Below are positions 1 through 25,000 of a stretch of 25,000 bases of DNA, in pieces. Source of the DNA: a virus (Duplodnaviria > Caudoviricetes); IMG/VR virus record IMGVR_UViG_3300025610_000134, positions 1 to 25,000 of that record; one strand, given 5' to 3'. Below the pieces are notes generated by a model. The model made no database searches, had not been told where the DNA came from, and worked only from the letters and a program-made list of their open reading frames with translations. Positions within the stretch are counted from its first letter, which is position 1, and each line of letters opens with the position of its first letter. The position numbers were made by a program, and so were the translations under genes.

Positions 1-44
1 AGATGATTGGAGATACTATTAACAAAGCTAAACGATTGAAATGA
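1..44 (+). CDS. 3' end of an upstream gene (…MIGDTINKAKRLK*), truncated by the window edge
   Basis: Open frame from position 3 ends at TGA 42-44, which overlaps the ATG at 41 (ATGA coupling). Confidence 0.55.
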   Translation, partial: MIGDTINKAKRLK

Positions 45-694
45 AGATATTAAATTTATACGCTTGTCTAGGTGGTAACCGATACAAGTGGGGAGATGAA
101 CACGAGATAACAGCAGTAGAATGGGATGAGGAATTAGCTAGGTTATATCAAGAGAGGTTTCCTAATGATACAGTAATAGTAGGAGATGCACATCAATATC
201 TGCTAGACCACTATCAAGAGTTTGATTTCATTTGGAGTAGTCCACCTTGCCCAACACATTCAACAACAAATTGATTTTTAAACGCACAAGGTGTTATACG
301 CTATCCTAATATGGAACTATATCAAGAAATAATACTTTTAGATTCTTTTTTTAAAGGCAAGTATGTTATTGAAAATGTTATACCATATTATGAACCATTA
401 ATACCTGCTAAAAAAAGAGGTAGGCATTTATATTGGACTAACTTTCCTTTACCCAATGTTTTAAGCCATAGGCAACCACCAAAAATGAATTGTAATAAAA
501 ACATAACTAAAAAAGTTGCTTTAGCTTTTGCTGAATATCATTTTATAGACAAGCTTTTAAAAAAATACAAAGGTAAACAGTCTAAAGACAAGATAGCTAG
601 AAACTTAGTTGATTATGAAGCAGGTAAAACTATATTAGATACTGCTATGGGAATAATACATAAACAAGATATAAAACAAACAGAACTATTTTAA
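41..694 (+). pseudogene. C5-cytosine DNA methyltransferase (short phage type, about 217 codons) interrupted by a single in-frame TGA at 272-274
   Basis: ORFs 41..274 and 311..694 share a frame, and the gap reads *FLNAQGVIRYPN with no other stop. Motifs are in canonical order: I (LNLYACLGG), IV catalytic (SSPPC), VI (IENV), VIII-like (GRHLYW), X-like (ARNLV). Could be a pseudogene, a read-through gene or a sequencing error. Confidence 0.8.
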
Positions 695-696
695 CT

Positions 697-1143
697 ATGA
701 CAACGATAATAATAACCCTCTTGCTTATTTCTATTTTATATCTTATATTCGCAATCAAAGATTTAAAAGATGATGTTAGTGATATTGAGTTTCGAATGGA
801 TATTCTTAAAGAGATATGTGCTGACTACGAGAAAAGAATCAAAGAACTAGAGAATGTCAGACAAACCGAAGTTAAGCGAAGAAAGGGTGCAGATAGCTAT
901 CGTAGAATATGTAAAGATGCAATATCCAAATACTCTGCTTACTGCTACAATGGGTGGTCAATTTCAAAGGCACTACTCACAAAGGCTCAAGGCAAAGCGT
1001 ACAGGCTATTTGAGGGGAGTATCAGACCTGCTTATATTCGAGCCAAACGAAACGTACAATGGCTTGTTTATAGAGCTAAAAAAGGACAAGAAGTGTTATC
1101 CCTCAAAGGAGCAAAAGTTATTCATTCAGAACGCTTTAGATAG
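697..1143 (+). CDS. Hypothetical protein with N-terminal transmembrane helix and coiled coil; C-terminal half overlaps the next gene
   Basis: Hydrophobic IIITLLLISILYLIFAI followed by heptad-like charged helix. Starts 2 nt after the MTase stop. Overlaps 854..1222 by 290 nt. Confidence 0.6.
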   Translation: MTTIIITLLLISILYLIFAIKDLKDDVSDIEFRMDILKEICADYEKRIKELENVRQTEVKRRKGADSYRRICKDAISKYSAYCYNGWSISKALLTKAQGKAYRLFEGSIRPAYIRAKRNVQWLVYRAKKGQEVLSLKGAKVIHSERFR

Positions 1144-1222
1144 AGGTTACTACGCTATCTGTTGCAAAGGCTTTGACCACACAAAAGATACGATAGATAA
1201 ATACTTTAACAACGAATTATGA
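854..1222 (+). CDS. VRR-NUC family PD-(D/E)xK nuclease (putative Holliday junction resolvase)
   Basis: Motifs SEERVQ, GVSDLL, LFIELK, SKEQKLF, GY; typical 122-aa size. Confidence 0.85.
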   Translation: MSDKPKLSEERVQIAIVEYVKMQYPNTLLTATMGGQFQRHYSQRLKAKRTGYLRGVSDLLIFEPNETYNGLFIELKKDKKCYPSKEQKLFIQNALDRGYYAICCKGFDHTKDTIDKYFNNEL

Positions 1223-1551
1223 AGTCAAAATATTATTACGAATACACAAGGAATATGGATACCACGAACAAAAGTGAATTAGAGAGAATAAACAATAAGC
1301 TGTTCAATGAAACTGCTAAGGAAAGAAACATACCAAGCTATTACATTGGCTCTGTGTATGGATATGAAGCTCGTAAGGTGGTAGAGGATTGGAATCTATC
1401 CTACAACATAGGTACTGCTGTTACATATCTTCTTCGTGCAGGTAAGAAGGTAGAGCAGGGTATGGATAACAAGGCAAAACATATTGAGGATATTAAAAAG
1501 ACTATTAACCATCTCAAGTTTGAGATAGAAAGATTAGAAAATGAGCATTAA
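1219..1551 (+). CDS. DUF3310 / SaV-like protein (T7 gp1.7 nucleotide kinase-like)
   Basis: Pattern PSYY…EARKVVEDWNLSYNIGTAVTYLLRAGKK…EDIKKTINHL. Confidence 0.75.
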   Translation: MKSKYYYEYTRNMDTTNKSELERINNKLFNETAKERNIPSYYIGSVYGYEARKVVEDWNLSYNIGTAVTYLLRAGKKVEQGMDNKAKHIEDIKKTINHLKFEIERLENEH

Positions 1552-1738
1552 TATATACGACAGGAAAGACCGTAGAGGTGGGGGCTATGCCAAGCGCAAG
1601 TTTACCCTTGAAGAAGCAGAATGGATAAGAGAAGAATACAAAGCAGGGGGTATAAGTCAGACCAAACTCGCTAAGAAGTATGGTGTATCTCAACCCATCA
1701 TCAATATGATTTTACGAGGGAAAACCTATAATAAGTAA
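1541..1738 (+). CDS. Small helix-turn-helix DNA-binding protein
   Basis: KFTLEEAEWIRE…ISQTKLAKKYGVSQPIINMILRGKTY is an HTH of the type often found C-terminal to phage HNH domains. Confidence 0.8.
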   Translation: MSINIYDRKDRRGGGYAKRKFTLEEAEWIREEYKAGGISQTKLAKKYGVSQPIINMILRGKTYNK

Positions 1739-1757
1739 AATAAATTAAATTATTTTG

Positions 1758-1787
1758 TTGTTTATTAAAAAAATTAGTTTATCTTTG
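1758..1787 (+). promoter_or_regulatory. Bacteroidota sigma-A type promoter (leadered)
   Basis: TTG 1758-1760, 19-nt spacer, TATCTTTG 1780-1787; ATG follows at 1812. Confidence 0.75.
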
Positions 1788-1811
1788 TAAGGAATTTAAA
1801 ACTAAAACATT

Positions 1812-2021
1812 ATGAAAGACAACGTAAATATAAAAGATTCTTACTACATAGAGCAAGACAATTACACGCTAGAGGTGTTCTACCACTACTATTCAGAGAG
1901 AGATACCAACTACGAAGAATTAGAAATAGAAAAGGTTATACTCAATGGAGGTATTGATATAACAGATTTGTATTGGGATTACATTGATTTAGAAGATGTT
2001 ATTATAGAATCATTAAAATAA
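1812..2021 (+). CDS. Hypothetical acidic phage protein
   Basis: 69-aa ORF behind a promoter and an A-rich leader. Confidence 0.7.
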   Translation: MKDNVNIKDSYYIEQDNYTLEVFYHYYSERDTNYEELEIEKVILNGGIDITDLYWDYIDLEDVIIESLK

Positions 2022-2105
2022 ATGGGGGATATAGGGGGTATAGGGGGGTACTTCGATACTCCAATGATAAACAAACTAAACGATAACGAATTTAATTACA
2101 TTATT

Positions 2106-2384
2106 ATGATTACTAAAAAAGAAGCAAAGCATTTACTAAACAAGATGAGAAACGATAACAGAATGTTCTCACTTGAATTTATTAAAAAAGATGGAACTAA
2201 AAGAGTTATGTTGGCTAGGTTCAATGTAACAAAGGGTCTTACAGGAAAGGGTCAACGATACAATCCTGCTGACTACGATTTAATCAATGTGTACGATATG
2301 AATAAGAGTGCATACAGAAGTGTGCCACTAAATACATTACTTTGGATTAGAACCAAAGGTAAAAGATATTATGTTAGTGCATAG
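2106..2384 (+). CDS. SH3-fold / WYL-like phage protein (DUF2693-like)
   Basis: Pattern FSLEFIKKDGTKRVM…VYDMNKSAYRSV. Start moved from 2022 to the in-frame ATG at 2106, which has an A/T-rich upstream region; the 2022-2050 G-tracts look non-coding. Confidence 0.7.
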   Translation: MITKKEAKHLLNKMRNDNRMFSLEFIKKDGTKRVMLARFNVTKGLTGKGQRYNPADYDLINVYDMNKSAYRSVPLNTLLWIRTKGKRYYVSA

Positions 2385-2411
2385 TACTTGTTTTTTTGAA
2401 TTTTGTTTTGG

Positions 2412-2449
2412 AATGGGAGGTAGTATTGAAACTGCTTCCCATTTTTTTT
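2412..2449 (+). terminator. Intrinsic terminator
   Basis: AATGGGAGGTAGT-attgaa-ACTGCTTCCCATT hairpin (two G-U pairs) running into a T tract. Confidence 0.75.
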
Positions 2450-2510
2450 ACCTGTTGAAACTGCCATTGACCTCAGCGAAACTGCTCTGAAACTGCCCTG
2501 AAACTGCCAT
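2428..2510 (+). repeat. Five direct GAAACTGC repeats
   Basis: Copies start at 2428, 2457, 2478, 2489 and 2500; the last three have an 11-bp period. Confidence 0.9.
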
Positions 2511-2550
2511 TAGTCTGCCGAATTTTTTATAATGACCACCTCCTCTCCTC

Positions 2551-2640
2551 TTAGTGTCGTTTGTACACTTACTTAGTGTATTTTCTACACTAACCTCTTG
2601 GTGTACTTTTTACACTAACTTTGTGTCGTTTGTACACTAA
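2551..2640. repeat. Tandem array of four 21-bp imperfect palindromes, TTAGTGTA-N5-TACACTAA
   Basis: 2551 ttagtgtcgtttgtacactta; 2573 ttagtgtattttctacactaa; 2598 ttggtgtactttttacactaa; 2620 tttgtgtcgtttgtacactaa. Confidence 0.92.
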
Positions 2641-2734
2641 GGTAACAAATTAATATTTTTGTTCTTTTTATTTGTTTATTAAATATTTTTGTTGTATGGG
2701 TTGAAAGTTTTTTATTTTTGTATTAAAAAATTTG

Positions 2735-2742
2735 TATATTTG
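2735..2742 (+). promoter_or_regulatory. -7 element of a Bacteroidota-type promoter for the AT-rich island
   Basis: TATATTTG followed by a 23-nt A-rich leader to ATG 2766. No TTG at canonical -33 spacing. Confidence 0.55.
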
Positions 2743-2765
2743 CTGAAACAAAACTCAATAAAACG

Positions 2766-2867
2766 ATGAAACAAAAAAAACATTTTACACTTGATAATTT
2801 AGTTTTTCACTTATGGAAAGTTATTATTGTTACAGTACTATTAATTAACATTTTAAATTTATACTAA
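2766..2867 (+). CDS. 33-aa predicted membrane peptide (MKQKKHFTLDNLVFHLWKVIIVTVLLINILNLY), not in the ORF track
   Basis: Manual translation. Basic N-terminus plus hydrophobic helix; stop lies 1 nt before the next ATG. Confidence 0.6.
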   Translation: MKQKKHFTLDNLVFHLWKVIIVTVLLINILNLY

Positions 2868-2868
2868 T

Positions 2869-3504
2869 ATGAAAACTAGAATAAAACTATATAACGGGCT
2901 AAAAATTAGTCAAATTTTAACACAAAATAGTAAACTAAAAAAGACTAGCAAAGAAAATAATAAAAGAGTTTTTAACTTTGGTATATCGGCTTATAAAACT
3001 AGTACGGGAAAAATTGTTTGTCCCTTTGCTAAAGACTGTATAAAGTTTTGTTATGCTCAGAAAGGGGCTTATAATTTTGGCAATGTTAAGCCATTATTTG
3101 AGCAAAGATATAATTTGACTAAAAGTAATATTTTTATTGAAGCAATAAACGACAGTATAAAAGCTAAAAAAGTAGATGTTTTACGTATTCACGATAGTGG
3201 AGATTTTTACAGTAATGAATACATAAACAAATGGTTAACAATAGCAAAACAAAATAAAGATGTTATTTTTTATGCATACACTAAAAGTATACCATTATTT
3301 GAAAAAATAAATTTACCTGAAAATTTTATTGTTATTTATTCATACGGATCAAAAGTAGATAATTTAATTGATCCGAATAAACATAGACATTCAAAAATAT
3401 TTGACGATGAAAAACAATTGATAAACGAAGGATATATAAACGCTAGTAAAAATGATTTAAACGCTATTAAAAGCAATAAAAAAGTCGGCTTAATATTCCA
3501 CTAA
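2869..3504 (+). CDS. GP88-like protein (Cys-cluster, radical-SAM-like phage family)
   Basis: CPFAKDCIKFCYA cysteine triad, RIHDSGDFYS and FYAYTKS motifs. Confidence 0.75.
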   Translation: MKTRIKLYNGLKISQILTQNSKLKKTSKENNKRVFNFGISAYKTSTGKIVCPFAKDCIKFCYAQKGAYNFGNVKPLFEQRYNLTKSNIFIEAINDSIKAKKVDVLRIHDSGDFYSNEYINKWLTIAKQNKDVIFYAYTKSIPLFEKINLPENFIVIYSYGSKVDNLIDPNKHRHSKIFDDEKQLINEGYINASKNDLNAIKSNKKVGLIFH

Positions 3505-3530
3505 AAAAAACAATTAAAAACTATAAACAA

Positions 3531-3686
3531 ATGATACTATATAAATTCACATTAAATTACAGTAATGGACAAATAAAAATATATAACAAGTTTTGTGTAC
3601 ACTACAAAAAAACTAGTATTTATAAACAATGTATAAAACTTTTAGAAAATGATACTTTAACAAGTTTTTCAGTAAGTAATAATTAA
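3531..3686 (+). CDS. 51-aa hypothetical protein (MILYKFTLNYSNGQIKIYNKFCVHYKKTSIYKQCIKLLENDTLTSFSVSNN), not in the ORF track
   Basis: Manual translation. A-rich start context (ctataaacaaATG); fills the gap between neighbours. Confidence 0.6.
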   Translation: MILYKFTLNYSNGQIKIYNKFCVHYKKTSIYKQCIKLLENDTLTSFSVSNN

Positions 3687-3698
3687 AATAATAAAACT

Positions 3699-3887
3699 AT
3701 GAACGATATAAACAATATAAATAGATATAAAATAAATACTAAAATTTCTTTTGGTTCTAGGTTCTACTTTGCATCTTGGTGTTATGCTAAGAGCTTTAGA
3801 GGGGCAAGACAAACGAAGGTATTTAAACACTATAAGAACGAGTTAGAAAATTCTAGGATAGTCGGTTTACAAATAGAAAAATTTTAA
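3699..3887 (+). CDS. Hypothetical protein
   Basis: 62-aa ORF with A-rich start context. Confidence 0.6.
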   Translation: MNDINNINRYKINTKISFGSRFYFASWCYAKSFRGARQTKVFKHYKNELENSRIVGLQIEKF

Positions 3888-3891
3888 GGAT

Positions 3892-3981: not shown

Positions 3982-4003
3982 CCGATTAAATTACTAGATT
4001 AAG

Positions 4004-4038: not shown

Positions 4039-4046
4039 ATTTTTTG

Positions 4047-4077: not shown

Positions 4078-4104
4078 TATCATATTAATTAAACAACTAA
4101 AACA

Positions 4105-4959: not shown

Positions 4960-5370
4960 ATGAGTGACGAAAAAGAAAAGTTACCTGACACGGAAAACTA
5001 TGCGCCAAAAAGAACCTTTGGTCATCACAATGGCACGGGTAGAAAGAAGGGTAGTATAACCAAAACCACAAAGATAACAAGGGAGATACTTGCCAATGCT
5101 CTTAGTGGGCAGGAGGTAAATATTATGGATGCCCTTGAAAAGCTGTCGGCTAAGAACCCTGAAGCATATATCAATGCCATAGCTAAATTGCTAAACTACG
5201 CAATGCCAAAGCTACAATCAACAGAGATTAAAGCAGAGAACAGCAGAAAGATTGAGATTAAGCTAGATGACAATGTTAGCTTAGATGAACTAAAAGCTAA
5301 GATGGAGAATCTCGAAAGAGATGACGATGACGATGATGACTTGGCAGACTATATCGAGATAGATGGATAA
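4960..5370 (+). CDS. terS: Terminase small subunit (putative)
   Basis: Directly upstream of and overlapping terL; N-terminal GRKKGS motif, helical core, acidic tail. Confidence 0.7.
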   Translation: MSDEKEKLPDTENYAPKRTFGHHNGTGRKKGSITKTTKITREILANALSGQEVNIMDALEKLSAKNPEAYINAIAKLLNYAMPKLQSTEIKAENSRKIEIKLDDNVSLDELKAKMENLERDDDDDDDLADYIEIDG

Positions 5371-6790
5371 ACAACAGAAAAAGCAGTTGCTTCAGGCAAT
5401 GGAGAAAGCCATATGCGAGAAATCGTTTTATGAGTTCTTCATCAGAGCCTTTGAGATTGCTGAACCCTCTGTTCCCATATCAGTAAACTTTCACCATAAA
5501 TATCTTTGCGATTTACTACAAGCCGAAGCCGAAAGGATAAAAGAGAATCGACCAAAGGATAAGGATATAATTATTAATATTCCATTCCGTAGTAGTAAGT
5601 CACTACTCGTTACGGTATTGTTTCCCGCTTGGTGTTGGGCAGTATATCCTAAGATGAGGTTCATCACAGCATCATACTCAGCAGAGATTAGTATAGAACA
5701 CGCAACCAAGTCAAGGGATATAATCAATAGCGAATGGTATCAGAAACATTGGGGTGAAACCTATCAGATTAAGAAAGACCAAAACCTAAAGGCAAGATAC
5801 GAGAATACTTTTCTAGGAGTTAGAAGGGCAACATCTGTTGGAGGTTCGGTAACAGGGCAAGGTGGCGATATAATTCTAGTCGATGACCCTACCTCTCCGA
5901 AAAATGCAGCTTCGCAGATAGAAAGAGAAAATGCTAACGAATGGTATAAGTCAACATTGTATTCACGACTTAACAATCCAACAACGGGAGTTAGGATAAT
6001 TATTATGCAAAGAGTACACGAAGATGACCTAAGTGGCTATCTTCTATTCAACTCACCCGACAAACATAAGCATATATGTATTCCCGCAGAACTTTCTAGC
6101 GACTTAAAGCCTTCACACCTAGCTGACCAATATCAAGATGGTCTGTTTTGGAAAGAAAGGTTTTCACAAGAGGTTTTAGATGATTACAAGTCGGCACTTG
6201 GCTCTTATGGCTATGCAGGACAACTACAACAGCGACCAACACCTGCAAATAGCGGGATGATTAAGAAATCGTGGTTCAAGGTAGAAGAAAAACAAAAAGA
6301 AGGGGTAGTCAATTTTATAATCGACCCTGCATACACCGCAAGTGAGAAAAATGACCCTTCAGCACTACTAGCCTATGTATTTGCTGACAATACTTGGCAA
6401 ATAACATCAGTACAGAATGTAAGGTTGGAATTTCCCGACCTAGTAAAGCATATAGTCAAGTTCGTAGAGAAGAATGGCTATACTACGCAGTCTAAAATAT
6501 TTGTAGAGCCTAAAGCAAGTGGTAAATCCATTGTGCAGACACTTATGAGAGAAACAGGACTGAACGTAAGAGAAGATAAACCGCCTACCAAAGATAAGGT
6601 GGCTAGAGTGCAGGACATAAGTCCAACATTGGAAACAGGTAGAGTTACTCTACTAAAGGGTGCTTGGAACGAGGAGTTCCTAATGCAATGCCAACAATTT
6701 CCTGCTGCAAGGCACGATGATATGGTGGATTGCCTAGTAATGACCGTAAATCAGCACTTTAAAGGTAAAAAAGTAGTATTTTTTGGATAA
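5363..6790 (+). CDS. terL: Terminase large subunit (Terminase_6 / psiM2 ORF9-like)
   Basis: Walker A-like INIPFRSSKS, Walker B IILVDD, IMQRVHEDD, QLQQRP, nuclease motifs IIDPA and HDDMVD. Confidence 0.95.
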   Translation: MDKQQKKQLLQAMEKAICEKSFYEFFIRAFEIAEPSVPISVNFHHKYLCDLLQAEAERIKENRPKDKDIIINIPFRSSKSLLVTVLFPAWCWAVYPKMRFITASYSAEISIEHATKSRDIINSEWYQKHWGETYQIKKDQNLKARYENTFLGVRRATSVGGSVTGQGGDIILVDDPTSPKNAASQIERENANEWYKSTLYSRLNNPTTGVRIIIMQRVHEDDLSGYLLFNSPDKHKHICIPAELSSDLKPSHLADQYQDGLFWKERFSQEVLDDYKSALGSYGYAGQLQQRPTPANSGMIKKSWFKVEEKQKEGVVNFIIDPAYTASEKNDPSALLAYVFADNTWQITSVQNVRLEFPDLVKHIVKFVEKNGYTTQSKIFVEPKASGKSIVQTLMRETGLNVREDKPPTKDKVARVQDISPTLETGRVTLLKGAWNEEFLMQCQQFPAARHDDMVDCLVMTVNQHFKGKKVVFFG

Positions 6791-7254: not shown

Positions 7255-7892
7255 ATATAGAAATAAATAGCAAAGAGTACAATATTCCTAACAAGTGGGA
7301 AGAAATGACTGTTGATTACTATTGCGGAGTGTATGAGATAATAAAAAAGTATCAAATCACAGAAGAAGAAGCAAATAGTGACAATGATTTGACAAAATAC
7401 CACATAATGCAGGAAAATAAGATGTATAAGGAATTATTCATCTATATGACAGGCATTAGTGACAAAGTAATGGCAAATGTGCCAATGGAAGATGTTATGG
7501 CAGTAATTGAGTGCCTTAACGAGATTATGGAAGAATACAAGCCAAAAGGAATGGACTATTTTGAATTTGAGGGCGATATATACTATTTCCCTATGGATTT
7601 CCTTAGAACAGGCACTTTTGGTGATTACATAGAGAGTCAGCAGCTTGAAATGAATACACAATACCTAAAAAACGGTAGATTTGATATTTTACCCGAACAA
7701 ATGGCAATATTGTGTAAACAAGTTGATGAGGAGGTTGACCTCGACAATATTGATGAAAAGGCGAAAGCATTTCGTAGATTGACAATGGACATCGTATGGG
7801 AGTTCAGTTTTTTTTTGAACAAACGAACTTTGGCATCAATCAACGTTATAAAAACCTTTTCAGAGATGGCGGAACAAAAAGTATCGCAGTAG
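7248..7892 (+). CDS. Tail assembly chaperone (gpG-like)
   Basis: Acidic protein with IPNKWEEMT and TFGDYIE motifs; FSFFL encoded over a T9 slippery run at 7808-7816. Confidence 0.65.
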   Translation: MLNIEINSKEYNIPNKWEEMTVDYYCGVYEIIKKYQITEEEANSDNDLTKYHIMQENKMYKELFIYMTGISDKVMANVPMEDVMAVIECLNEIMEEYKPKGMDYFEFEGDIYYFPMDFLRTGTFGDYIESQQLEMNTQYLKNGRFDILPEQMAILCKQVDEEVDLDNIDEKAKAFRRLTMDIVWEFSFFLNKRTLASINVIKTFSEMAEQKVSQ

Positions 7893-8104
7893 CGAAGGCA
7901 AGTAAGATAATGAAGCCATTTGGTTGGCTGAACACCTTATACGACCTAGCACTTGATGGAGTATTTACAAGAGATGGTAAAGATGCTATGCAAAGTGTAA
8001 AAGATGAAAAGTTGTATAAAGTTTTAACATACCTGTCTTGGAAAACTGCAAAAGGAGATTATGAACTAGCTGTTAATGAAGAACAGAGGAAACAAATAAA
8101 ATAA
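7808..8104 (+). CDS. Frameshift extension of the tail chaperone (gpT-like); fused product about 285 aa from 7248
   Basis: ORF 7796..8104 is in the -1 frame and opens at the T9 run; contains GWLNTLYDLA…VLTYL. Confidence 0.65.
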   Translation, partial: FFFEQTNFGINQRYKNLFRDGGTKSIAVAKASKIMKPFGWLNTLYDLALDGVFTRDGKDAMQSVKDEKLYKVLTYLSWKTAKGDYELAVNEEQRKQIK

Positions 8105-15003: not shown

Positions 15004-15503
15004 AGAATATACTAAAGACATTTGATAGAACAATCAATGAGATTGGAAAGAAGTTTGTTACTAGGTTTAGAGAAGAACTTAAACAACAAGACCATATTGC
15101 AACAGGTAATCTTTCTGATACAATGCACTACGACTTAGTAGAGAGTAAAGATTCTATTGATTTAGTTGTTCAGACAAGAGCTAAATATGTAGACGCTGTT
15201 AATGAAGGTCAAAAGGCAGGTACTTATCCAAATCTTGATGCTATTATGAATTGGATGGATGCTAAGAAAATACCTTATGGCAGTCAAGGCGAAAAGGTTT
15301 CCATAGCAAGTAGAATAGCAAAAAGAATACAAATGGAAGGTACTCCAACAAAAGGAAGTAAGCAATTTTCATTTAACGGATTTAGAACAGGATTTATTAA
15401 TAGAGTAGTAGGGAGTAATGAAAGACACTTTCTTAACGACATTGATAAATCAATATCAACAGATATAAATAACATATTTAAGCAATTACCAAAACAAGTA
15501 TAA
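15000..15503 (+). CDS. Neck/tail completion protein (HK97 gp10-like)
   Basis: ATGNLSDTM…YVDAVNEG…IAKRIQMEG…GFI pattern; adjacent to the tape measure gene. Confidence 0.55.
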   Translation: MKNILKTFDRTINEIGKKFVTRFREELKQQDHIATGNLSDTMHYDLVESKDSIDLVVQTRAKYVDAVNEGQKAGTYPNLDAIMNWMDAKKIPYGSQGEKVSIASRIAKRIQMEGTPTKGSKQFSFNGFRTGFINRVVGSNERHFLNDIDKSISTDINNIFKQLPKQV

Positions 15504-18235
15504 TGGCGAAGAAGCAACAAACAGTACATCAGATTAAAATACTAGGTCTTAATGATATTAAGGCTTTAAATGTTGAGATAAGCAAGTTAGCGGGTAACTA
15601 TGATAAGCTAGGTAAGGAGGGTAAAGAAACTTCCGAATCAACCAAAAAAGTTGGTAAAGCATCTAAAGATTCTTCAGGAGGCATTTCAAAGATGGCTAAA
15701 GGTGCTGCTGCTGCTGCTGCTGCTTTAGTGGCTTTTAATAAAGTATCAAAACTTATGACACAACAGATGAAACAAGCTGTTGAAGTTTTCAAGGGTTTTG
15801 AATTTGAAATGACTAAGGTAAAGGCAATCTCAGGAGCTAACGATGCTGAGTTTAAAAAACTAAACAAATCAGCACAAGAGTTAGGTCGTTCTACATTCTT
15901 TACAGCACAACAGGTTGCAGCTTTACAGCTTAACTTTTCTAAACTTGGATTTACAGCATCAGAGGTTTTGGAAGTGCAAGAAGCAGCTTTACTTGGTGCA
16001 ACAGCAACAGGTGAGGACTTAGCAAGAACAGCAACAGTAATTGGTTCTACTGTTAGAGGTTTTGGTTTAGATGCTACTGAGGGTGCTAGAGTAGCTGATG
16101 TTATGGCAGCTTCATTTACAAGTTCAGCATTAACTCTTGAAAAGTTCCAAACATCAATGACAAAGGTTTCTCCTGTTGCGAAACTGCTAGGTATGGACTT
16201 GGAGGAAACTACTGCTGTTATGGGTGTGCTTACAGATGCGGGTATTGAAGCATCTATTGCAGGTACATCACTTCGTAATATATTCCTAAAACTTGGTGAC
16301 CCATCATCTGACTTAGCTAAGTCTATTGGATTTACTGTAAACTCAGGAGAAGATATGGTTCGTGAGTTTAGAAGAATGAGGGATGAAGGTATTAATGTAG
16401 AAAAGATGCTTGAGGTTGTAGATGTAAGACAGGTAGCTGCAATATCTACAATGATAGAACATATTGATAAGATTGAAAAACAAACCGAAGCATTTAGAAA
16501 CTCTGAGGGTGCTGCGGGGGATATGGCAGGTGTTATTGGCGACTCTTTGCAAGGTGCTACCCTTCGTTTTCAATCAGCACTCGATGGTTTAAGAATCGTT
16601 ATTGTAGAAAAGTTTGCTCCTGCACTTACAGGTATGTTGGATAGACTTGCTAGACTATTTAATCTATATGCAGAATCTATATCTCCAATGCAAACCAATA
16701 TTGAGCTGATGCAAGAGCAACAAAGACTTTTTGATTCTCAAATTAAGCTGCTTACAGATGCAAACTTATCTGAAGATGCTAGAAGAATTATTATTAAAGA
16801 GATAAATAAAGAGTTTAAAGATTACCTACCAAACCTTATATCAGAAAAAGATGGTCTTGATGAAATAACAAAGGCAAGTGATTTAGCTGTTACAGCTATG
16901 ACCAAAAGAGTTGTTGCTATGAAGTTTGAGCAAGAACAAAAAGAGATATTGGATAAAAGGAGAGCTGCTTCTGAGCATTTAGCAAATATGCAGATAGCAG
17001 AATCAAGAGGTGAATTATCATCTCAACAAGAAGGGTTATCAGCAGAAGCAGAAGCAACATTGAAAGGTTTTGAGGACTTAGCCATAGGACTTTCTAAATC
17101 TACCTTAGAATCTACTGAAGGCTCTATTGAGGAGCTTACTAAGAAATATAGATTGATGGCACAGGAATTAGGATTTGCTTTTGAAGATTTATTTCCTGAT
17201 GCTCCAAAAACCGATGAAAATAACGATAATGGGAATGGAGGTGATGGAGAAGGTATAACTCAACTTGAAATACAAGAGGAAATATTACAACGAGCATTAC
17301 TTGACATTAAAAAAGATTACTTAGTTCAAGAAGAACAAGATAAAAATGACTTAAACGCAAGACTTTTAGCATCTGAAATAATACATTTAGAGCAAACCAT
17401 TGGATTACTAGAAGATGGTTCTGATGCTAAATTCCAAATAGAAAAAAGATTAACAGACGCTAAAATAAAACTTAAAGAGCAAGAAGCTAATGCTCATATA
17501 AAATCGGAAGAAGATAAGAGGAAGGCGACAGAAAAGAATATTGCCACAATGAAAGAAACAGGTAAACTGTTAATGCAAATTGGTGAGCAAGAAGGTGAAA
17601 ATAGTAAGATAAGAGCAATAGGTATTAAGATAACTCAAGCTGCTGCGGTAGCAGAGGGTATTCACGGACTAACGAAAAGTTTTAGCGCAATATCAGAGCA
17701 AGGTTTAGGCGGTGACCCATTTACCGCAATATTAAGAGTAGCTGCTATGGCAGCGCAACTAGCATCTGTTATATCTAATTTAAAAGCGTTAACAGGCAGT
17801 AGTGGTGGCGGAGGTGGCTCATCTGATGGTGAAGCTACATTCTTACAAGATAGTCAGGGTAATCAGTTTGCTAATGGTGGACTAACAAGAGGTGGTATGT
17901 TTCAAGGTAACTCACACGCTAATGGTGGTGTTAAATTTAGAGTTGGTGGTAGAATACACGAAGCTGAAGGTGGTGAAGCAATTATCAACAAAAAATCAAC
18001 AAGTATGTTTAGACCTGTACTATCAGCTATCAATAGCTACAATGGTAATGGTGTAAAGTTTGCTGATGGTGGTTTACTCAATAGCGGAGAGAAGTTTGCT
18101 ATGGGCGGTGAGCTAAGGTCAGCACAACAATTAATAAGTGGAGGAATGGGAAGTTCTAAGGTTGTAATCGTTGAAAGTGATATGACAGAAGTGCAGAATA
18201 GAATATCTGCTATTGAAAGTCAGGCTACTTTTTAG
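15503..18235 (+). CDS. Tape measure protein (TP901 family core)
   Basis: FEFEMTKVKAISGA, LSKLGF-like FSKLGF, RVADVMA and AGTSLRNI motifs; long helical body; C-terminal FANGG…SHANGG…EAEGGEAIIN. Confidence 0.92.
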   Translation: MAKKQQTVHQIKILGLNDIKALNVEISKLAGNYDKLGKEGKETSESTKKVGKASKDSSGGISKMAKGAAAAAAALVAFNKVSKLMTQQMKQAVEVFKGFEFEMTKVKAISGANDAEFKKLNKSAQELGRSTFFTAQQVAALQLNFSKLGFTASEVLEVQEAALLGATATGEDLARTATVIGSTVRGFGLDATEGARVADVMAASFTSSALTLEKFQTSMTKVSPVAKLLGMDLEETTAVMGVLTDAGIEASIAGTSLRNIFLKLGDPSSDLAKSIGFTVNSGEDMVREFRRMRDEGINVEKMLEVVDVRQVAAISTMIEHIDKIEKQTEAFRNSEGAAGDMAGVIGDSLQGATLRFQSALDGLRIVIVEKFAPALTGMLDRLARLFNLYAESISPMQTNIELMQEQQRLFDSQIKLLTDANLSEDARRIIIKEINKEFKDYLPNLISEKDGLDEITKASDLAVTAMTKRVVAMKFEQEQKEILDKRRAASEHLANMQIAESRGELSSQQEGLSAEAEATLKGFEDLAIGLSKSTLESTEGSIEELTKKYRLMAQELGFAFEDLFPDAPKTDENNDNGNGGDGEGITQLEIQEEILQRALLDIKKDYLVQEEQDKNDLNARLLASEIIHLEQTIGLLEDGSDAKFQIEKRLTDAKIKLKEQEANAHIKSEEDKRKATEKNIATMKETGKLLMQIGEQEGENSKIRAIGIKITQAAAVAEGIHGLTKSFSAISEQGLGGDPFTAILRVAAMAAQLASVISNLKALTGSSGGGGGSSDGEATFLQDSQGNQFANGGLTRGGMFQGNSHANGGVKFRVGGRIHEAEGGEAIINKKSTSMFRPVLSAINSYNGNGVKFADGGLLNSGEKFAMGGELRSAQQLISGGMGSSKVVIVESDMTEVQNRISAIESQATF

Positions 18236-18614: not shown

Positions 18615-19619
18615 ATGAACAAATGGTATTCAATAGAAAACAAAGCAGATAATAGCGTAGAAATATCTATCTATGATGAGATAGGTGACTACGGAACATC
18701 TGCTAAGAACTTTATAGAGGAAGTAAAAGCTGTTGGAACTGCTGACATCACATTGCGTATCAACTCTGTTGGTGGTAGTGTGTTTGATGGTTTAGCTATT
18801 TACAATACTTTACGTTCTCACAATGGATATGTAAACATTAAGATTGAAGGTTTAGCTGCATCTATATCAACTGTTATTGCGATGGCGGGAGATAATATTG
18901 AGATGTCAGAAAACGGATTCTTTATGATTCACAATCCTTTCGGACAATCGGCAGGTGAAGCAGGTGATATGCGTAAGACTGCTGATTTACTTGACAAGAT
19001 AAAAGAGGAGATTATGGAAATCTATTCTAAGAAAACAAACCTTTCGTTTGAAACTCTTTCGGATATGATGGATAAAGAAACTTGGTTGTCTAGTCAAGAA
19101 GCAATGGAATATGGCTTTATAGATACTATTACAGAGCCTATGAAAGTTGCTGCATCTTTTGACCTTTCTAAATTTACTAACGTGAACGAGAAAGAGGTCA
19201 ATGATAAATTGAAATTAAATAATAATAATAAATCAATTAAAATGACTGAAGAATTAAAAACTTGGTTCAACGGTGTTAAAGAGGAAATCTTAAACGCTGT
19301 AAAAGGAGAGAATGTTTCTACTCCTGCTGAAGAAGTTTCTGTTTCTATTTCTGACAATGAGGTTATCGTTAATAAGCTAGAAGAACTAGAAGAAAACGCT
19401 AACTCTTTGCGTGAAGAAAAAGAAGAATTAGCAGGTCTTGTTGGTGAGAAAGAAGGCACTATTGCTGACTTAACTAACAAAGTTGCTGATATGGAAGCTA
19501 AATTAGCTAAATTAGAAGCTACTGAAACTAATGTAGAAGTAGAAAGCGACCCTGCAATCAACGAAAGTGATGTTGTAGTTAACGCTTGGGATGCTTTTGC
19601 TAAATCAATTTTAAAATAA
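18615..19619 (+). CDS. ClpP-like (S14) prohead protease with C-terminal coiled-coil scaffold
   Basis: INSVGGSVFDG, GLAASIS (catalytic Ser), FMIHNP (His), ETWLS, YGFID; acidic heptads at the C-terminus. Confidence 0.92.
   Translation: MNKWYSIENKADNSVEISIYDEIGDYGTSAKNFIEEVKAVGTADITLRINSVGGSVFDGLAIYNTLRSHNGYVNIKIEGLAASISTVIAMAGDNIEMSENGFFMIHNPFGQSAGEAGDMRKTADLLDKIKEEIMEIYSKKTNLSFETLSDMMDKETWLSSQEAMEYGFIDTITEPMKVAASFDLSKFTNVNEKEVNDKLKLNNNNKSIKMTEELKTWFNGVKEEILNAVKGENVSTPAEEVSVSISDNEVIVNKLEELEENANSLREEKEELAGLVGEKEGTIADLTNKVADMEAKLAKLEATETNVEVESDPAINESDVVVNAWDAFAKSILK
19242..19619 (+). CDS. Nested in-frame scaffolding protein (125 aa, MTEELK…)
   Basis: In-frame ATG preceded by aataataataaatcaattaaa, which resembles the start contexts of the capsid and tail-tube genes. 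Confidence 0.55.
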   Translation: MTEELKTWFNGVKEEILNAVKGENVSTPAEEVSVSISDNEVIVNKLEELEENANSLREEKEELAGLVGEKEGTIADLTNKVADMEAKLAKLEATETNVEVESDPAINESDVVVNAWDAFAKSILK

Positions 19620-19636: not shown

Positions 19637-20656
19637 ATGGCTTTACAATTAACAAGTTTACCAACTGTTGAGCAGTATGATGTAAACAGAGCAATCATCC
19701 AACCTATCTTTATGGGTCAGGATTATATGCAATATATGGAAGTATTACCTAACATTAAAGGTACTACTGTGATTGACAAGTTCAATCAATTAGGAAAGAT
19801 TACAAAGGCTTTCACAAACGATGCTTTCTCTGCTGAATCTGATGTAGATAAAGGTGCTACAATTACAATCACTCCTTCTCGTGTAGAAGCTGAGATTGAG
19901 TTTAGAGCAAACGAGCTTTTCAATAAGATGAAAGGTCAATTGATGCGTGACGGACACGAGTTTGATAATGTTGAAGGCTCTGTTGTTAAGAATATTCTTC
20001 TTGACTTAATTGGACAAGGCGTAAAAGCTGACTTTAATCGTCAACTATGGTTGTCAGATGTTGCTGAAGCTGATGCTGACTACGGTATCTATGATGGTAT
20101 CTTCCAAGTAGCTAAAGAAGCAGGTGCAACTGCATTAACAAGAGAATATAGTGGTTTAACTACACAGGCTGACGATGCTGCTTTAGTAGCGGGTAATGGT
20201 CTTAAAATTATGCAAGGTCTTTATGATTCTGCTGCTCCTGAATTATTAGAAGCAGGAAATCACGTATTCTTTGTATCAGGTGATATCGCTGATGACTATA
20301 TGGCTTCAACTTTAGAATCTTCTAGCTTTGCTGCTGCGGGTTACGGTGCTATGGTTAACGGTGTTCCTAACTTAACTTACAGAGGTATTCCTATCATTGT
20401 ACGTAGAGATTGGGATGTAGCAATCGCTGCTGATGTTGCAGAAATCAACGGTTGTACTGCTGCTGCTGAAACTCACAGAGCTTTACTAACTACAAAAGAT
20501 GCTTTTGTTGTAGGTACTGACTTCGATGAGAACTCTGTTGAGCAATGGTATTCTATGGATCACAAAGCGTATCGTTTTAGAGTTGCTTATATGGTTGGTG
20601 TAGCGTTGAAAGACCCTAAACTAGCTGTATATTATACTCCTAATGCAATATCGTAA
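19637..20656 (+). CDS. Major capsid protein
   Basis: Follows the protease/scaffold; 339 aa; YDGIF motif; strongly biased GCT/GGT codons; terminator downstream. Confidence 0.85.
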   Translation: MALQLTSLPTVEQYDVNRAIIQPIFMGQDYMQYMEVLPNIKGTTVIDKFNQLGKITKAFTNDAFSAESDVDKGATITITPSRVEAEIEFRANELFNKMKGQLMRDGHEFDNVEGSVVKNILLDLIGQGVKADFNRQLWLSDVAEADADYGIYDGIFQVAKEAGATALTREYSGLTTQADDAALVAGNGLKIMQGLYDSAAPELLEAGNHVFFVSGDIADDYMASTLESSSFAAAGYGAMVNGVPNLTYRGIPIIVRRDWDVAIAADVAEINGCTAAAETHRALLTTKDAFVVGTDFDENSVEQWYSMDHKAYRFRVAYMVGVALKDPKLAVYYTPNAIS

Positions 20657-21287: not shown

Positions 21288-21306
21288 TAATTAACTAAAA
21301 AGTAAT

Positions 21307-21339
21307 GGATTGGGCAATTTGCCCTTTCCTTCTTTTTTT
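21307..21339 (+). terminator. Intrinsic terminator overlapping the next promoter
   Basis: GGA-tt-GGGC-aattt-GCCC-tt-TCC followed by a T tract. Confidence 0.6.
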
Positions 21340-21349
21340 ATTATACTTG
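21319..21349 (+). promoter_or_regulatory. Promoter of the portal module (predicted leaderless)
   Basis: TTG 21319-21321, 20-nt spacer, TATACTTG 21342-21349 (one mismatch); 4 nt to ATG 21354. Confidence 0.55.
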
Positions 21350-21353
21350 CAAT

Positions 21354-21554
21354 ATGTATAAATCAACATTAAAAGAAGGTCTTACCGTTTTTAACGGATT
21401 TAAAGTTATGTGGGCAAATGCAACTCAAGATGAACTAAAGAAGGTTTATGACTTGGGATTTACTAACCTTGTAAGCAAAGAAGATGCAAAACCGAAGAAA
21501 ACCAAATCAAAAGCAAAAGAAGAATCAAGTAAAGACAACTCCGACAAAGAGTAG
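21354..21554 (+). CDS. Small hypothetical protein with Lys-rich tail
   Basis: ATQDELKKVYDLG core; overlaps the portal start by 71 nt. Confidence 0.65.
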   Translation: MYKSTLKEGLTVFNGFKVMWANATQDELKKVYDLGFTNLVSKEDAKPKKTKSKAKEESSKDNSDKE

Positions 21555-22776
21555 TTTTAATACTAAGTATGCTTTTGTAAATCTATCTACTCCTACGGTA
21601 GATACTGAGGTTAAGGATTTAGACAGACTAAGAGAGGACTTTATTCCTTTTGGTAAGGATAACTTATTTCCTCAATACTTAGCTGAACTAAAAAGACAAT
21701 CTTCTACACACAGGTCTGTATTAGCACAGAAAACTACATTCACTACGGGTGGTGGTTTTATTACTGACAATGAAGCTCTAAGTGGTTTTATTGAAGATGT
21801 AAACGCTAATGGAGAAAGTTTAAAGGACTGCTTTAAAAAACTAGCTGACGACTATTATACTTATGGTAATGCTTTCTTAGAAGGTGTTGTATATGATGGC
21901 GGTGTAAACTTCTATCATAAAGATGCTTCAACAGCTAGGGTTTCTAAAAATAAGAAGTACGTTTACTTCAACTCTGATTGGTCTAATTACAGAAAGAACA
22001 AAGAGAAAACTCAAAGAATACCTGTTTACCCACAGATTTCTAACAGCAGTTTTATTATACATTACAAGGATTACGAAAGTACATTTAACTTTTATGGTTT
22101 ACCTGACTATGTAGCTGCATTGGAACACATAGCAATAGACTATGAGATTGGTAAATTTAACCATACATCATTTAAGAATGGATTTAGTCCTTCCGCTATT
22201 GTTACCGTTAATGGCGATTTTGGCGAATCAGAAGCCGAAAAGTTTGTTGAAACTGCTAAAGAAACGCTAACAGGTAGTGGTAACAACTCAAAGATATTAT
22301 TCCTTGTAAAGAATGGAGAGGATAGTCGAGGAACTGATGTTCAGATTATATCCAACAAGGAAGATGGTGACTTCTTAGACTTACAGAAGTTAACCGACCA
22401 AAACATAATTACCGCTCACAGATGGCAACCTGCCTTGAGTGGTATCGTATCATCGGGTAAGATGAACAATACGGGTAGTGAGATTAGAATAGCTTATGAC
22501 TTAGCTATGTCAACTGTTATTAGAGATACTACTAACATCTTGCTAGAGCCGATTAAAAGGGTTATCAATGCAGAGATGGGTATTGACACAAGTGACCTTA
22601 CGGTAGCTTACGAACCGCCTATCTCATTCCTTGCAGATATTGACCCTAAACAAGTATTGACTATCAATGAGCAAAGAGCAATGCTTAATAAAGACTTGCC
22701 TAACATTCCTGATGGTGAATTACTTATATCAGATAGACAAACAATAACCGTACAAAGACAACAAGAGAATGGCTAA
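21484..22776 (+). CDS. Portal protein
   Basis: IPFGKDNLFPQYL…SSTH, YGNAFLE, YGLPDY, NGFSPS, IITAHR and LTINEQRA motifs; 430 aa. Confidence 0.85.
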   Translation: MQNRRKPNQKQKKNQVKTTPTKSSFNTKYAFVNLSTPTVDTEVKDLDRLREDFIPFGKDNLFPQYLAELKRQSSTHRSVLAQKTTFTTGGGFITDNEALSGFIEDVNANGESLKDCFKKLADDYYTYGNAFLEGVVYDGGVNFYHKDASTARVSKNKKYVYFNSDWSNYRKNKEKTQRIPVYPQISNSSFIIHYKDYESTFNFYGLPDYVAALEHIAIDYEIGKFNHTSFKNGFSPSAIVTVNGDFGESEAEKFVETAKETLTGSGNNSKILFLVKNGEDSRGTDVQIISNKEDGDFLDLQKLTDQNIITAHRWQPALSGIVSSGKMNNTGSEIRIAYDLAMSTVIRDTTNILLEPIKRVINAEMGIDTSDLTVAYEPPISFLADIDPKQVLTINEQRAMLNKDLPNIPDGELLISDRQTITVQRQQENG

Positions 22777-23299
22777 TGTAAGACAATATGATAAGTTTGT
22801 AACACCTTCAGAGGTTATATCTACTGCGTTTACTAATCAAGCAACAGATACAGCTTTGATTAGCGATGCTATCCTTGAAATTGCTGAACTTGCACACATT
22901 AAGCCTGAGCTTGGTTTGGATATGTATGAGGAGCTAAAGATACAGAACGATAGCACAGGAACTCTTACAGCAGCCAACTCAATGCTTTTACAATACTACC
23001 TTAGACCTGCATTATGTTGGTTTGTTAGATTTGAGGTTATGAATGAGATTCAGTACAACACAACATCGGCAGGATTAGTTGTTAACGTTTCCGATTTTAG
23101 CACTCCTGCAAATGTAGAGCAATTTAATCAAATGAAAAGTGATACATTTAGAAAGGCACAAGTTTTACTTGACGATATGATTGCTTACATTACACATCAA
23201 GACCAAGTAAATAACTATCCTTTGTATGGTAAAGATGGAGATAGCTCTATGCCTGATACGGATATAGCTAGTAAGATGAACGGAATAATATTCTACTAA
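22769..23299 (+). CDS. Head-tail adaptor/connector protein, putative
   Basis: Follows the portal; helical; HIKPELGLDMYEEL…YLRPAL…YPLY pattern. Confidence 0.6.
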   Translation: MANVRQYDKFVTPSEVISTAFTNQATDTALISDAILEIAELAHIKPELGLDMYEELKIQNDSTGTLTAANSMLLQYYLRPALCWFVRFEVMNEIQYNTTSAGLVVNVSDFSTPANVEQFNQMKSDTFRKAQVLLDDMIAYITHQDQVNNYPLYGKDGDSSMPDTDIASKMNGIIFY

Positions 23300-23826
23300 T
23301 GAAGGAAGAAGAAAACGTATTTAGAGAGAACAAGGAATGTCCTGATGGATATGAACACCAAATGCCTGATGGCTCTTGGATGTGCGGTAAAGAACACGAT
23401 GGTGGTGCTTACGATGAGTTTGACGAAAACCAACTTGACCTTATGGATTTAATCAACGAGATGATGAGTGATTTGATTTCTGAAGTTAAGTCTGCTAAAA
23501 ATGCTTTCTCTCAAGAGGAGATTGATGAAACATATACAGAGTACAAGAAGTCTGTGAATATGAGTTACTCAGAACTAAAGAGATGGTCTGAGAATAAATG
23601 TAGTAAAAAGGCTAGTTTAGGTAGAGATGCTATAAACAGAAACCTAAAACTACTTTCTAAGAAAAAAGCTGATTGGACATCTAACGATGCTACTGAAGCT
23701 AGAAAAGCTATTGCTTATATTGCAAGAGCAATAAAACAACCACAAGGCAAAGATGTGAGTAAAGAATGCCCTTACTCCAAAAACTATATTGCTTTAAAAA
23801 ATTGGGCATACGATAGAAACAAATAA
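23299..23826 (+). CDS. Protein with N-terminal Cys/His motif and C-terminal DUF3140-like domain
   Basis: CPDGYEHQMPDGSWMCGKEH; VNMSYSELKRW…LLSKKKADWT…RKAIAYIAR…LKNWAYD. Confidence 0.6.
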   Translation: MKEEENVFRENKECPDGYEHQMPDGSWMCGKEHDGGAYDEFDENQLDLMDLINEMMSDLISEVKSAKNAFSQEEIDETYTEYKKSVNMSYSELKRWSENKCSKKASLGRDAINRNLKLLSKKKADWTSNDATEARKAIAYIARAIKQPQGKDVSKECPYSKNYIALKNWAYDRNK

Positions 23827-23837
23827 AATAAGATAAA

Positions 23838-24113
23838 ATGGCAACAGGATTTTTAGATGATAATGAATCGTTGATGAGAATGGTAGGACACACCGTTGGT
23901 GATGTTGAGGTATTTACTACTGCTGCTCAAACAAGCAAAAGTTTTTACTGCATACATTTCCCTGTGGAAAGTGTAGTATCAAGCATTGCTGTTGATGGTT
24001 GTACGGGTGAAACTGCTCTACAAACTACTTTACCTGCGGGAACTACATTGTTCTTGGGTAAAGTAACAGCGATTACATTAACAAGCGGTATTTGCATAGG
24101 ATATACAAGATAA
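23838..24113 (+). CDS. Small beta-rich hypothetical virion protein
   Basis: 91 aa, LPAGTTL…ITLTSG…IGY; lies in the structural operon. Confidence 0.65.
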   Translation: MATGFLDDNESLMRMVGHTVGDVEVFTTAAQTSKSFYCIHFPVESVVSSIAVDGCTGETALQTTLPAGTTLFLGKVTAITLTSGICIGYTR

Positions 24114-24114
24114 T

Positions 24115-24723
24115 ATGGCTAGTAACGAACATAGTAGTTTAGATAACTCACAGCTTCACGTTCCAAAGGACTTTAGCACAGCATCGGCTAATACTGTTCT
24201 TACTAAGAATGGTAGCAATGCTTTGACTTGGGCAGATGATAACCTTAGACGAACTCACTTCGTTAGGGTTAATGGTTTCTTTAGTCAAAGCACAACTGAC
24301 GAGTATGCACCTACATATTCAGGTAACTCTACTCACGTTTGGGATACAATAGTAACTGATGCTACTGCTGATGCACAAGATGCTGTTGCACAAGCACAAC
24401 TATATTGCCTTAGAGATGGATACATCAATGCTTTTGGCGGTGTTGTGGCAGCTACAAGCGGTAAAACTGTAAACTTTAAGATTTACAAAGGAACTCCTGT
24501 TGATGAAAGTGCAGCAGCTATTGACCTTACTCAATTAGGTAGTACAGCTAGTGAAGTTGGTGGTGGTAATACTACAACAGATGTATTCTCGGCAGGTGGA
24601 TTGGGTAGCACTCAAACATTCTCAGCAGGAGATATTATTATAGTTACTATATCAGCAGGTGCAGCAGAAGCAACAACAGCAAGGTTTAACGCTACTATGG
24701 AAGTAGTATATACAGAAGATTAA
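24115..24723 (+). CDS. Ala/Thr/Ser-rich hypothetical virion (fibre/decoration-like) protein
   Basis: 202 aa; VLTKNGSNALTW fibre-like segment; beta-sandwich-like C-terminus. Confidence 0.65.
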   Translation: MASNEHSSLDNSQLHVPKDFSTASANTVLTKNGSNALTWADDNLRRTHFVRVNGFFSQSTTDEYAPTYSGNSTHVWDTIVTDATADAQDAVAQAQLYCLRDGYINAFGGVVAATSGKTVNFKIYKGTPVDESAAAIDLTQLGSTASEVGGGNTTTDVFSAGGLGSTQTFSAGDIIIVTISAGAAEATTARFNATMEVVYTED

Positions 24724-24724
24724 T

Positions 24725-25000
24725 ATGTTAGGATTAAGAATAGCTTTAAGTGTAGCAAAAGGAGTTATTGACGAAATAGGTGGCTTATTATCAAAATTAG
24801 CAAGAAGGTCAACGTATAGTGAGAATCTTGCTGATTCAAGAGCTATTGTTTCTGATATAGATAGTTATGATTTATTAGACAAAGCTACTATACTACTTAC
24901 TCCTACTGCAACAAGTGATGCAAGGGTACACTCTGTAAAGACTTATACAGGTGATGAACTTTTGGACGTATCAAGTTTAAGTGGTACTAATTGGACTGCT
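24725..25000 (+). CDS. 5' part of a putative fibre/receptor-binding protein, truncated by the window edge
   Basis: Open from ATG 24725 to the end: MLGLRIALSV…LLDKATILLTPTA…HSVK…; not in the ORF track. Confidence 0.7.
   Translation, partial: MLGLRIALSVAKGVIDEIGGLLSKLARRSTYSENLADSRAIVSDIDSYDLLDKATILLTPTATSDARVHSVKTYTGDELLDVSSLSGTNWTA

Follow-up and report, generated by a model that had tools for sequence, protein, structure and literature searches.

Loss of restriction sites is a well-known strategy of evasion in phages, and several described cases lie close to the one reported here. In the available parts of two studies, near-complete elimination has been found mainly at orthodox Type II sites (PMC6286503; PMC4687349). 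The available part of the REBASE-derived list of 2018 (PMC6286503, supplement 4) gives CCAGA/TCTGG as the site of BspNCI and of Neisseria Type II enzymes, ACTGG/CCAGT as that of BsrI (8 rows, one of them from Bacteroidota), CCAGC/GCTGG as that of Nme579IP, a Type III enzyme, and CCNGG in 61 rows, with CCWGG also present; plain CCAG is missing from it. GAGAC, CACTG, CTRYAG, and GGNCC are listed there as well, and the rows from Flavobacterium or Cellulophaga include CATG, CGCG, GATC, GGCC, CCGG, and GGNCC. Another example is the halovirus Hardycor1, in which, according to the part of the source available, CCAG is under-represented (0.11) along with other asymmetric tetramers, and this has been read as defence avoidance (PMC7911831). 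Supplement 4 of PMC9516812, as far as available, holds separate columns for CC_A_GA, CC_A_GC, CC_A_GG, and CC_A_GT, whose values may be relevant to the reading favored below. The present analysis concerns the absence of CCAG/CTGG from a 25,000-nucleotide stretch (the window; positions 1 to 25,000 of IMG/VR record IMGVR_UViG_3300025610_000134), which is most of an uncultured tailed, siphovirus-like marine phage with a genome of about 34–36 kb. It is a real, extreme, and clade-wide case of restriction-site avoidance. What is new is that the CCAG gap is resolved into separately selected 5-mers, a resolution not found in the literature searched. The missing words are known restriction sites in the case of the four CCAG-N 5-mers and of most others, though not in that of plain CCAG.

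Neither CCAG nor CTGG occurs in the window, against 92 expected for the two together under an order-2 Markov model, and this is its most depleted 4-mer (z −9.6). Word figures are given below as observed/expected, the nulls being either order-2 Markov models or 1000 synonymous-codon shuffles of 30 genes. The shuffles retain on average 28.8 CCAG (minimum 17) and 60.3 CTGG (minimum 40), a total of 89 against none observed, so that the depletion goes beyond codon and amino-acid constraints, as it does in 12 pooled lineages of the clade (0/637). CCGG and GGCC are also 0 on both strands, in agreement with the manual scan of the first-pass annotation. Its expectation of tens of copies of each word holds for CCAG/CTGG and fails for CCGG and GGCC, of which only about 10 each are expected (0/11 and 0/11 under the Markov model; codon-shuffle means of 8.6 and 9.4). 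Among the words it had called common, CCTG/CAGG is indeed over-represented (143/105), but CCCG/CGGG has only 7 and 24 copies. On the coding strand, with the codon-shuffle null, all four fifth-base classes are empty in both orientations: CCAGA 0/11 and TCTGG 0/16, CCAGC 0/7 and GCTGG 0/18, CCAGT 0/6 and ACTGG 0/22, CCAGG 0/3 and CCTGG 0/1. A Dcm-type CCWGG system alone therefore cannot explain the gap, as had been argued earlier, since CCAGA, CCAGC, and CCAGT are missing too. Along the window the gap is uniform (no CCAG/CTGG in any 5-kb fifth, with 9.5–22 expected), and it extends over a 33,585-base contig with identical terminase and capsid proteins, fully covered by three overlapping loci, so that the purge is not one of an early region. 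Codon choice bends around the missing word: GCG makes up 9 of 34 Ala codons before GG and 17 of 469 elsewhere, ACG 9 of 39 Thr codons before GG and 21 of 452 elsewhere, CCA none of 50 Pro codons before G and 61 of 136 elsewhere, and CTG none of the 183 Leu codons before G. Similarly, a C-ending codon precedes none of 65 CAG and none of 66 TGG codons, while it precedes 18 of 199 CAA codons. This bending, the example codons quoted for it, and the persistence of the gap in counts against both nulls, in the window and in relatives, bear out the earlier description.

The fifth base has been dissected in a sister clade found through its Clp protease (48% identity), from which 80 loci were fetched and 27 of 9 kb or more remained after dereplication. 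In these loci, eight show no purge, seven lack CCAGC only, three CCAGT only, and one CCAGA only, whereas combined states are seen as CCAGA with CCAGC (3), CCAGC with CCAGT (1), and all three (4). When the seven loci without CCAGC are pooled, CCAGC stands at 2/108, CCAGA at 97/104, and CCAGT at 117/117, and ACAGC, GCAGC, and TCAGC are normal; given that the other CCAG-N and NCAGC words are present, the single gaps concern exact 5-mers. The other classes can be missing alone as well, for example CCAGA in L530 (1/20, with CCAGC 14/20 and CCAGT 23/19) and CCAGT in L484, L488, and L492 together (6/61, with CCAGC 84/84). Outside the sister clade, the cultured Cellulophaga phage phi17:1 (24.8 of 38.8 kb) has CCAGC at 1/27 and retains the other three classes, and two unrelated phages lack CCAGA (L468, 0/12) or nearly lack CCAGT (L587, 1/15). 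On the Clp tree, the A, A+C, C+T, and A+C+T states interleave within one 9-row group (support 96). Single-class lineages are purged on both strands (CCAGC 1/41, GCTGG 1/66), and among 8 relaxed loci and 89 rows none with adequate counts had the sites missing from one strand and at a normal level on the other; the counts of 0 and 7 in L087 are too small to call a strand bias. The retention of one strand expected of a Type III-style reader is thus not seen, both strands being empty in the window and in the single-class lineages. Any one of the CCAG-N words can be lost by itself, and from both strands.

A side case is the Croceibacter phage P2559S (L403, first 25 kb), in which CCAGA is at 0/37, CCTGA at 0/36, and CCCGA enriched. 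It was not counted as a clean CCAGA case, CCTGA being missing too, and its rule may be of the CCWGA type; P2559Y, on the same host, shows no CCAGA gap.

From the separate purging of CCAGA, CCAGC, and CCAGT it follows that no reader of 4 bp is needed. The reading favored here, with a probability of about 0.6, is that the CCAG gap is a stack of restriction-site avoidances over CCAGA, CCAGC, CCAGT, and CCNGG. Different host strains would carry restriction enzymes for separate five-letter words, the predicted targets, and a host population would have these enzymes distributed among its strains and not gathered in one cell. In a phage meeting them over time, point mutations, synonymous for the most part, would remove all copies, CCTG (1.34) and CCCG (2.04) being the presumable escape products, and CCAGG would be lost as part of CCNGG/CCWGG. 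The putative readers would be restriction endonucleases acting in either orientation of the site, most likely of Type II/IIS, which are preferred to Type III because of the loss on both strands and because it is orthodox Type II sites that are typically eliminated.

The spread of the gap in the window's own clade bears on a different proposal, close to that of the first-pass annotation, namely that a single undescribed restriction-type system reads asymmetric CCAG/CTGG, with 5-bp readers on top. The full capsid gene is present in 176 of 191 capsid-bearing sequences, and these 176 fall into 47 lineages (the capsid tree is a quick tree), of which the 43 where 15 or more sites are expected were tested for retention. 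The CCAG gap is the most stable of the clade: 37 of these 43 lineages have CCAG at or below 7% of expectation, as compared with 32 that keep the gap for GATC, 26 for GAGAC, 23 for CACTG, and 20 for CATG, and L277 and L196 have regained GATC and CATG but not CCAG. In addition, all 16 NCCAGN contexts are empty in the 12 pooled lineages, three classes return jointly in L261, L117, and L275, and the value in Hardycor1 could be taken as a precedent. On the other hand, each 5-mer is purged alone elsewhere and the single classes differ between sister lineages, the available 2018 list has no CCAG site, and the strand check yielded no well-populated one-strand case. Leftover sites in strict lineages also depend on the fifth base (21 distinct sites: A 12, G 4, T 3, and C 2, the CCAG-dense L273 being left out). 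A single 4-bp reader is therefore not needed, and is considered possible but rather unlikely.

The classes do not always move together within the clade either. Apart from the sister clade, this is the case in L239, which regains mostly CCAGC (10 of 13 sites, P = 0.008), and in L271 (21 kb), where 10 of 13 coding sites are CCAGG (P = 4e-11). In L271 and L130, nearly all of the surviving CCAG belongs to CCAGG (13 of 17 sites), and A precedes none of the 13. Either the CCWGG enzyme is no longer met by these lineages, or an overlapping methylation protects the sites; under the single-reader proposal, the retention in L271 would reflect blocking by overlapping Dcm-like CCWGG methylation.

Several observations weigh against the stacked avoidance of 5-mers. 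CCAGA, CCAGC, and CCAGT have been lost together in most lineages of the window's clade, and the three return together in L261, L117, and L275 (correlation 0.88–0.98; stratified permutation P = 3e-4, taking these lineages as independent, in a test that left out lineages with fewer than 30 expected sites). The Clp tree pairs L261 with L117 as sisters, though the capsid tree sets them apart; on the former, the joint return may be two events. These three lineages have regained CACTG as well, which would be expected if they had moved to less defended hosts. In the sister clade, the seven loci lacking only CCAGC form one clade on the Clp tree and count as one event, so that independent cases are few, and the state with all three classes purged is found four times against 1.3 expected under independence (P = 0.04). 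Among 27 marine phage loci bearing a methyltransferase, four are without any CCAG, and single-class gaps are not more frequent among them. The candidate host family has few restriction genes (C5 methyltransferase above cut-off in 12 of 68 genomes and N6/N4 in 7 of 68, all counted in incomplete metagenome-assembled genomes, MAGs), and Flavobacteriales contribute none of the listed enzymes for CCAGA and CCAGC, which are from Bacillus and Neisseria, the CCAGC one being a Type III enzyme. As for other groups, 22 of 27 loci of an HK97-like marine phage group have no class gap, and none of eight cultured flavobacterial phages (22–25 kb each) is without CCAG.

The first-pass annotation had also suggested that CCAG and CCGG might obey one rule, CCRG. 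Both words are indeed at 0 in the window and in the 12 pooled lineages, but they part in both directions in relatives, which is why a common rule is rejected as scarcely credible. L557 has CCAG/CTGG at 0/88 and yet CCGG at 3/4 (three CCSGG sites), and L080 has CCAG at 0/39 with CCGG at 4/2; conversely, L261 and L117 have regained CCAG with CCGG still at 0, of which only 1–2 were expected. CCGG is also 0 in many CCAG-rich phages, such as P2559S (0/57).

The words of the CCNGG and GGNCC type leave a mark on the proteins. Pro-Gly is always encoded as CCNGG, Gly-Pro as GGNCC, and Trp-Pro as TGGCC, and the window's proteins contain no Pro-Gly and no Gly-Pro, with 11 of each expected. In the 47 lineage representatives, which are related and not independent sequences, there are 4 Pro-Gly and 3 Gly-Pro against 332 expected of each, while the corresponding counts in 29 distant terminase loci are 260 and 169, with 267 expected. 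The near absence of these dipeptides results from the loss of CCNGG and GGNCC. Lineages that regain CCAG are still without Pro-Gly, and the dipeptide loss thus belongs to the CCNGG rule and not to a CCAG rule. The three CCSGG sites of L557, a locus that lacks CCAG, are compatible with Pro-Gly. Defence at the level of DNA can therefore strip whole dipeptides from the proteins of a phage clade.

CCAG is one of many purged words. Unlisted in the first-pass annotation are GATC (3/71), CATG (1/68), CGCG (0/6), GAGAC (0/17), CACTG (0/16), GGACC/GGTCC (GGWCC, 0/10), CTACAG (0/13), and CTRYAG (0). Six four-mers, six five-mers, and 20 six-mers, some of them overlapping, fall below one-tenth of expectation in the 12 pooled lineages. 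CTAG has been purged in some lineages (L257/L014, L116, and L115; 0/29–31 in L014 and L110) and stands at 66/89 in the window. In the sister clade, the three CCAG-N words are among the six most often purged 5-mers (in 13, 7, and 5 of about 22 loci). The features of the window to which these results refer are the following.

41..694, + strand: C5 cytosine methyltransferase gene (Pfam PF00145, E 7.5e-8; PHROG 363), with an in-frame stop at 272-274
5363..6790, + strand: terminase large subunit, with CCC-GAC (6056, 6434) and CCC-GCA (6083) replacing the avoided CCA-G
15503..18235, + strand: tail tape measure protein, with a GCG-GGG Ala-Gly pair at 16514
18615..19619, + strand: Clp-type head maturation protease, with the motif NSVGG at 18762-18776
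19637..20656, + strand: major capsid protein, used to define the clade
21484..22776, + strand: portal protein
3347, 3370, and 20558: surviving copies of GATC
4138: surviving copy of CATG

ClpP proteins usually show SPGG where the window's Clp-type protease reads SVGG. That this is a casualty of the Pro-Gly ban was considered and set aside, xVGG being found also in L484 and L492, of the sister clade, in which Pro-Gly has been kept; the corresponding motif of the prophage in G073 (see below) reads SYGG. Two long overlapping frames were noticed in the window, one at 697-1143, which overlaps the VRR-NUC gene and recurs in relatives, and one at 7796-8104, which overlaps the end of a 214-aa gene in an arrangement like that of tail-chaperone frameshift pairs.

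The methyltransferase gene raises the question of a mutational origin. Its frame is open in L407, from a near-identical contig, and the stop at 272-274 is accordingly a nonsense variant or a sequencing error; TGA recoding has been rejected given the standard stop usage in the window and the open frame in L407. The C5 methyltransferase family is very common in marine phages (at least 593 confirmed stretches), and its slot is variable, other genes being held there by the relatives L003, L015, L020, and L027. Upstream of the VRR-NUC gene these have a peptidase-like gene, a PAPS-reductase-like gene, or none (labels assigned from motifs), and L027 has, two genes beyond the slot, what is presumably a small NPPY-type methyltransferase, judging by its motif. 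Deamination at sites of the phage's own enzyme, or a repair bias of the host, could leave such a gap, and both the presence of this gene and the values of 0.6–0.8 of expectation for CCAG in some Flavobacteriales chromosomes would fit. However, the methyltransferase was found in only 1 clade locus searched besides the window (L407 being of the same contig), whereas gap-sharing relatives hold other genes in the slot, and 47 of 52 phage loci with a homologue retain CCAG at an observed/expected ratio above 0.2. The products of deamination are not enriched either (TCAG 1.03, CTAG 0.86, CCAA 1.13), in contrast to CCTG and CCCG. A mutational origin is thus very improbable, and the methyltransferase gene is a variable slot and no cause of the gap.

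The host of the phage is probably a marine member of the Flavobacteriales, judging from sequence matches. The best cultured matches of the terminase and of a phosphoesterase are Croceibacter, Cellulophaga, Nonlabens, and Flavobacterium phages (43–49%), those of the terminase, which include Croceibacter phage P2559Y, being 44% identical. A terminase match was found in 4 of 401 genomes searched, and G073, a genome of this order, contains a syntenic prophage in which nine genes match (G073:C9, about 84,000–104,500; L303 and L304), with identities to the window's group of 52% for terminase, 35% for capsid, and 31% for portal. This prophage shows no CCAG gap (68/78) and contains Pro-Gly. The flavobacterial host proposed earlier is thus likely. 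A further candidate, a Flavobacteriales MAG contig (L140, 10000-10040), has an aldehyde dehydrogenase gene running, at the contig end, into the middle of a capsid gene of the window's clade, and its phage part matches L115/L258 at 100% in a comparison of 188 bases. It was rejected as host proof and taken as weak support, for it may be an assembly chimera or a rare recombinant.

In host-order chromosomes the word is present. The Flavobacteriales chromosome G001 has CCAG at 1285/1295 over 332 kb, and the other stretches gave observed/expected ratios of 0.60–1.24 in 33 informative samples (40 stretches fetched, 34 long enough; L334, with 486 coding bases, was dropped). In G073 and G070 only certain codon frames account for the low values, and the value of G087 was counted without a split by frame; these three chromosomes were rejected as carriers of a CCAG enzyme, and G070 yielded one weak C5 match and no N6/N4 or D12 match. 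With a Flavobacteriales host, the depletion is a property of the phage, absent from the sampled chromosomes and from the related prophage, and the possibility raised earlier that the host chromosome shares the gap finds no support. A sequence-specific defence of the host is therefore preferred to a mutational or repair bias, as the first-pass annotation had it, the phage gap being present in all frames and on both strands. As to the enzymes, the candidate family and order do contain genes of Type II, Type III, and Ssp systems, although genes of this sort do not reveal their target specificity. In the literature searched, no CCAG, CCAGA, or CCAGC enzyme is named in Flavobacteriales, and CCAG was not found in the text and supplement of PMC8919816; in the available part of another source, a sea-ice Polaribacter MAG methylates CCWGG and CCGG (PMC12570018). 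A neighbouring observation is that Type III restriction genes in L191 (G068:C1, 1,070,000–1,090,000) adjoin a tight group of small virus-like genes that do not resemble the modules of tailed phages.

A phosphorothioate system (Ssp or BREX type 4) marking C*CAG could likewise select against unmarked CCAG in phages. A PT-seq study of a human faecal sample mentions CpsCAG/CCpsAG sites in its available part (10.1101/2024.06.03.597111), CCTC is one of the asymmetric 4-mers that Bacteroidota modify by their BREX-4 systems (PMC12914056), and sspB-sspC genes are present in one genome of the candidate family (L333, G055:C14). Nevertheless, this is 1 of 68 genomes searched, and the described Ssp motif is CCA, while CCAA (1.13), CCAC (1.06), and CCAT (1.02) are normal. 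In the SspE model, as far as the available part of the source goes, the mark is read on host DNA and no motif-specific cut of phage DNA is described (PMC9646914). Since it would also leave the single 5-mer gaps unexplained, a phosphorothioate origin is considered improbable.

The clustering of three CCAG-N words among the most purged ones, beyond what unrelated specificities would give, hints at a concentration of CCAG-core specificities in this host group. It has led to the tentative idea, doubtful as it is, that marine Flavobacteriales hold a widespread undescribed family of cutters with a CCAG core that switch or drop the fifth base; if so, phage word gaps would map its alleles across uncultured hosts. 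More generally, the stacked avoidance of 5-mers makes the CCAG gap testable, as it predicts CCAGA, CCAGC, and CCAGT methylation in marine Flavobacteriales, and it means that an empty 4-mer need not imply a 4-bp reader. The lists of purged words also indicate which sites to omit from DNA intended for these hard-to-transform bacteria.

Compared with known enzymes, the sites listed for BsrI, BspNCI, Nme579IP, and the CCNGG/CCWGG-type specificities (enzymes of the ScrFI/EcoRII type) are exactly the four missing words. The differences are that no homologue tied to these sites was found in the Flavobacteriales genomes searched, and that CCAGC is purged on both strands, unlike the requirement of a Type III enzyme for head-to-head sites. 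T5-type first-step-transfer regions are free of restriction sites, and the likeness to them lies in a DNA purged of many restriction words; in contrast to that early block, the purge described here covers the whole 33.6-kb contig, structural genes included. Hardycor1 differs from the window, in the part of its description available, by an archaeal host, a partial loss, and no resolution into 5-mers (PMC7911831). The closest likeness is with the avoidance described in non-temperate double-stranded DNA phages by Rusinov et al. (2018; PMC6286503), within the available part of that study: total loss on both strands, synonymous change, and words that are mostly listed Type II sites, to which may be added that the prophage relative in G073 shows no CCAG gap. 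What sets the present clade apart from those phages is that about 25–30 words have been purged together, that an apparent 4-mer splits into four 5-mers, and that the loss reaches the level of dipeptides.

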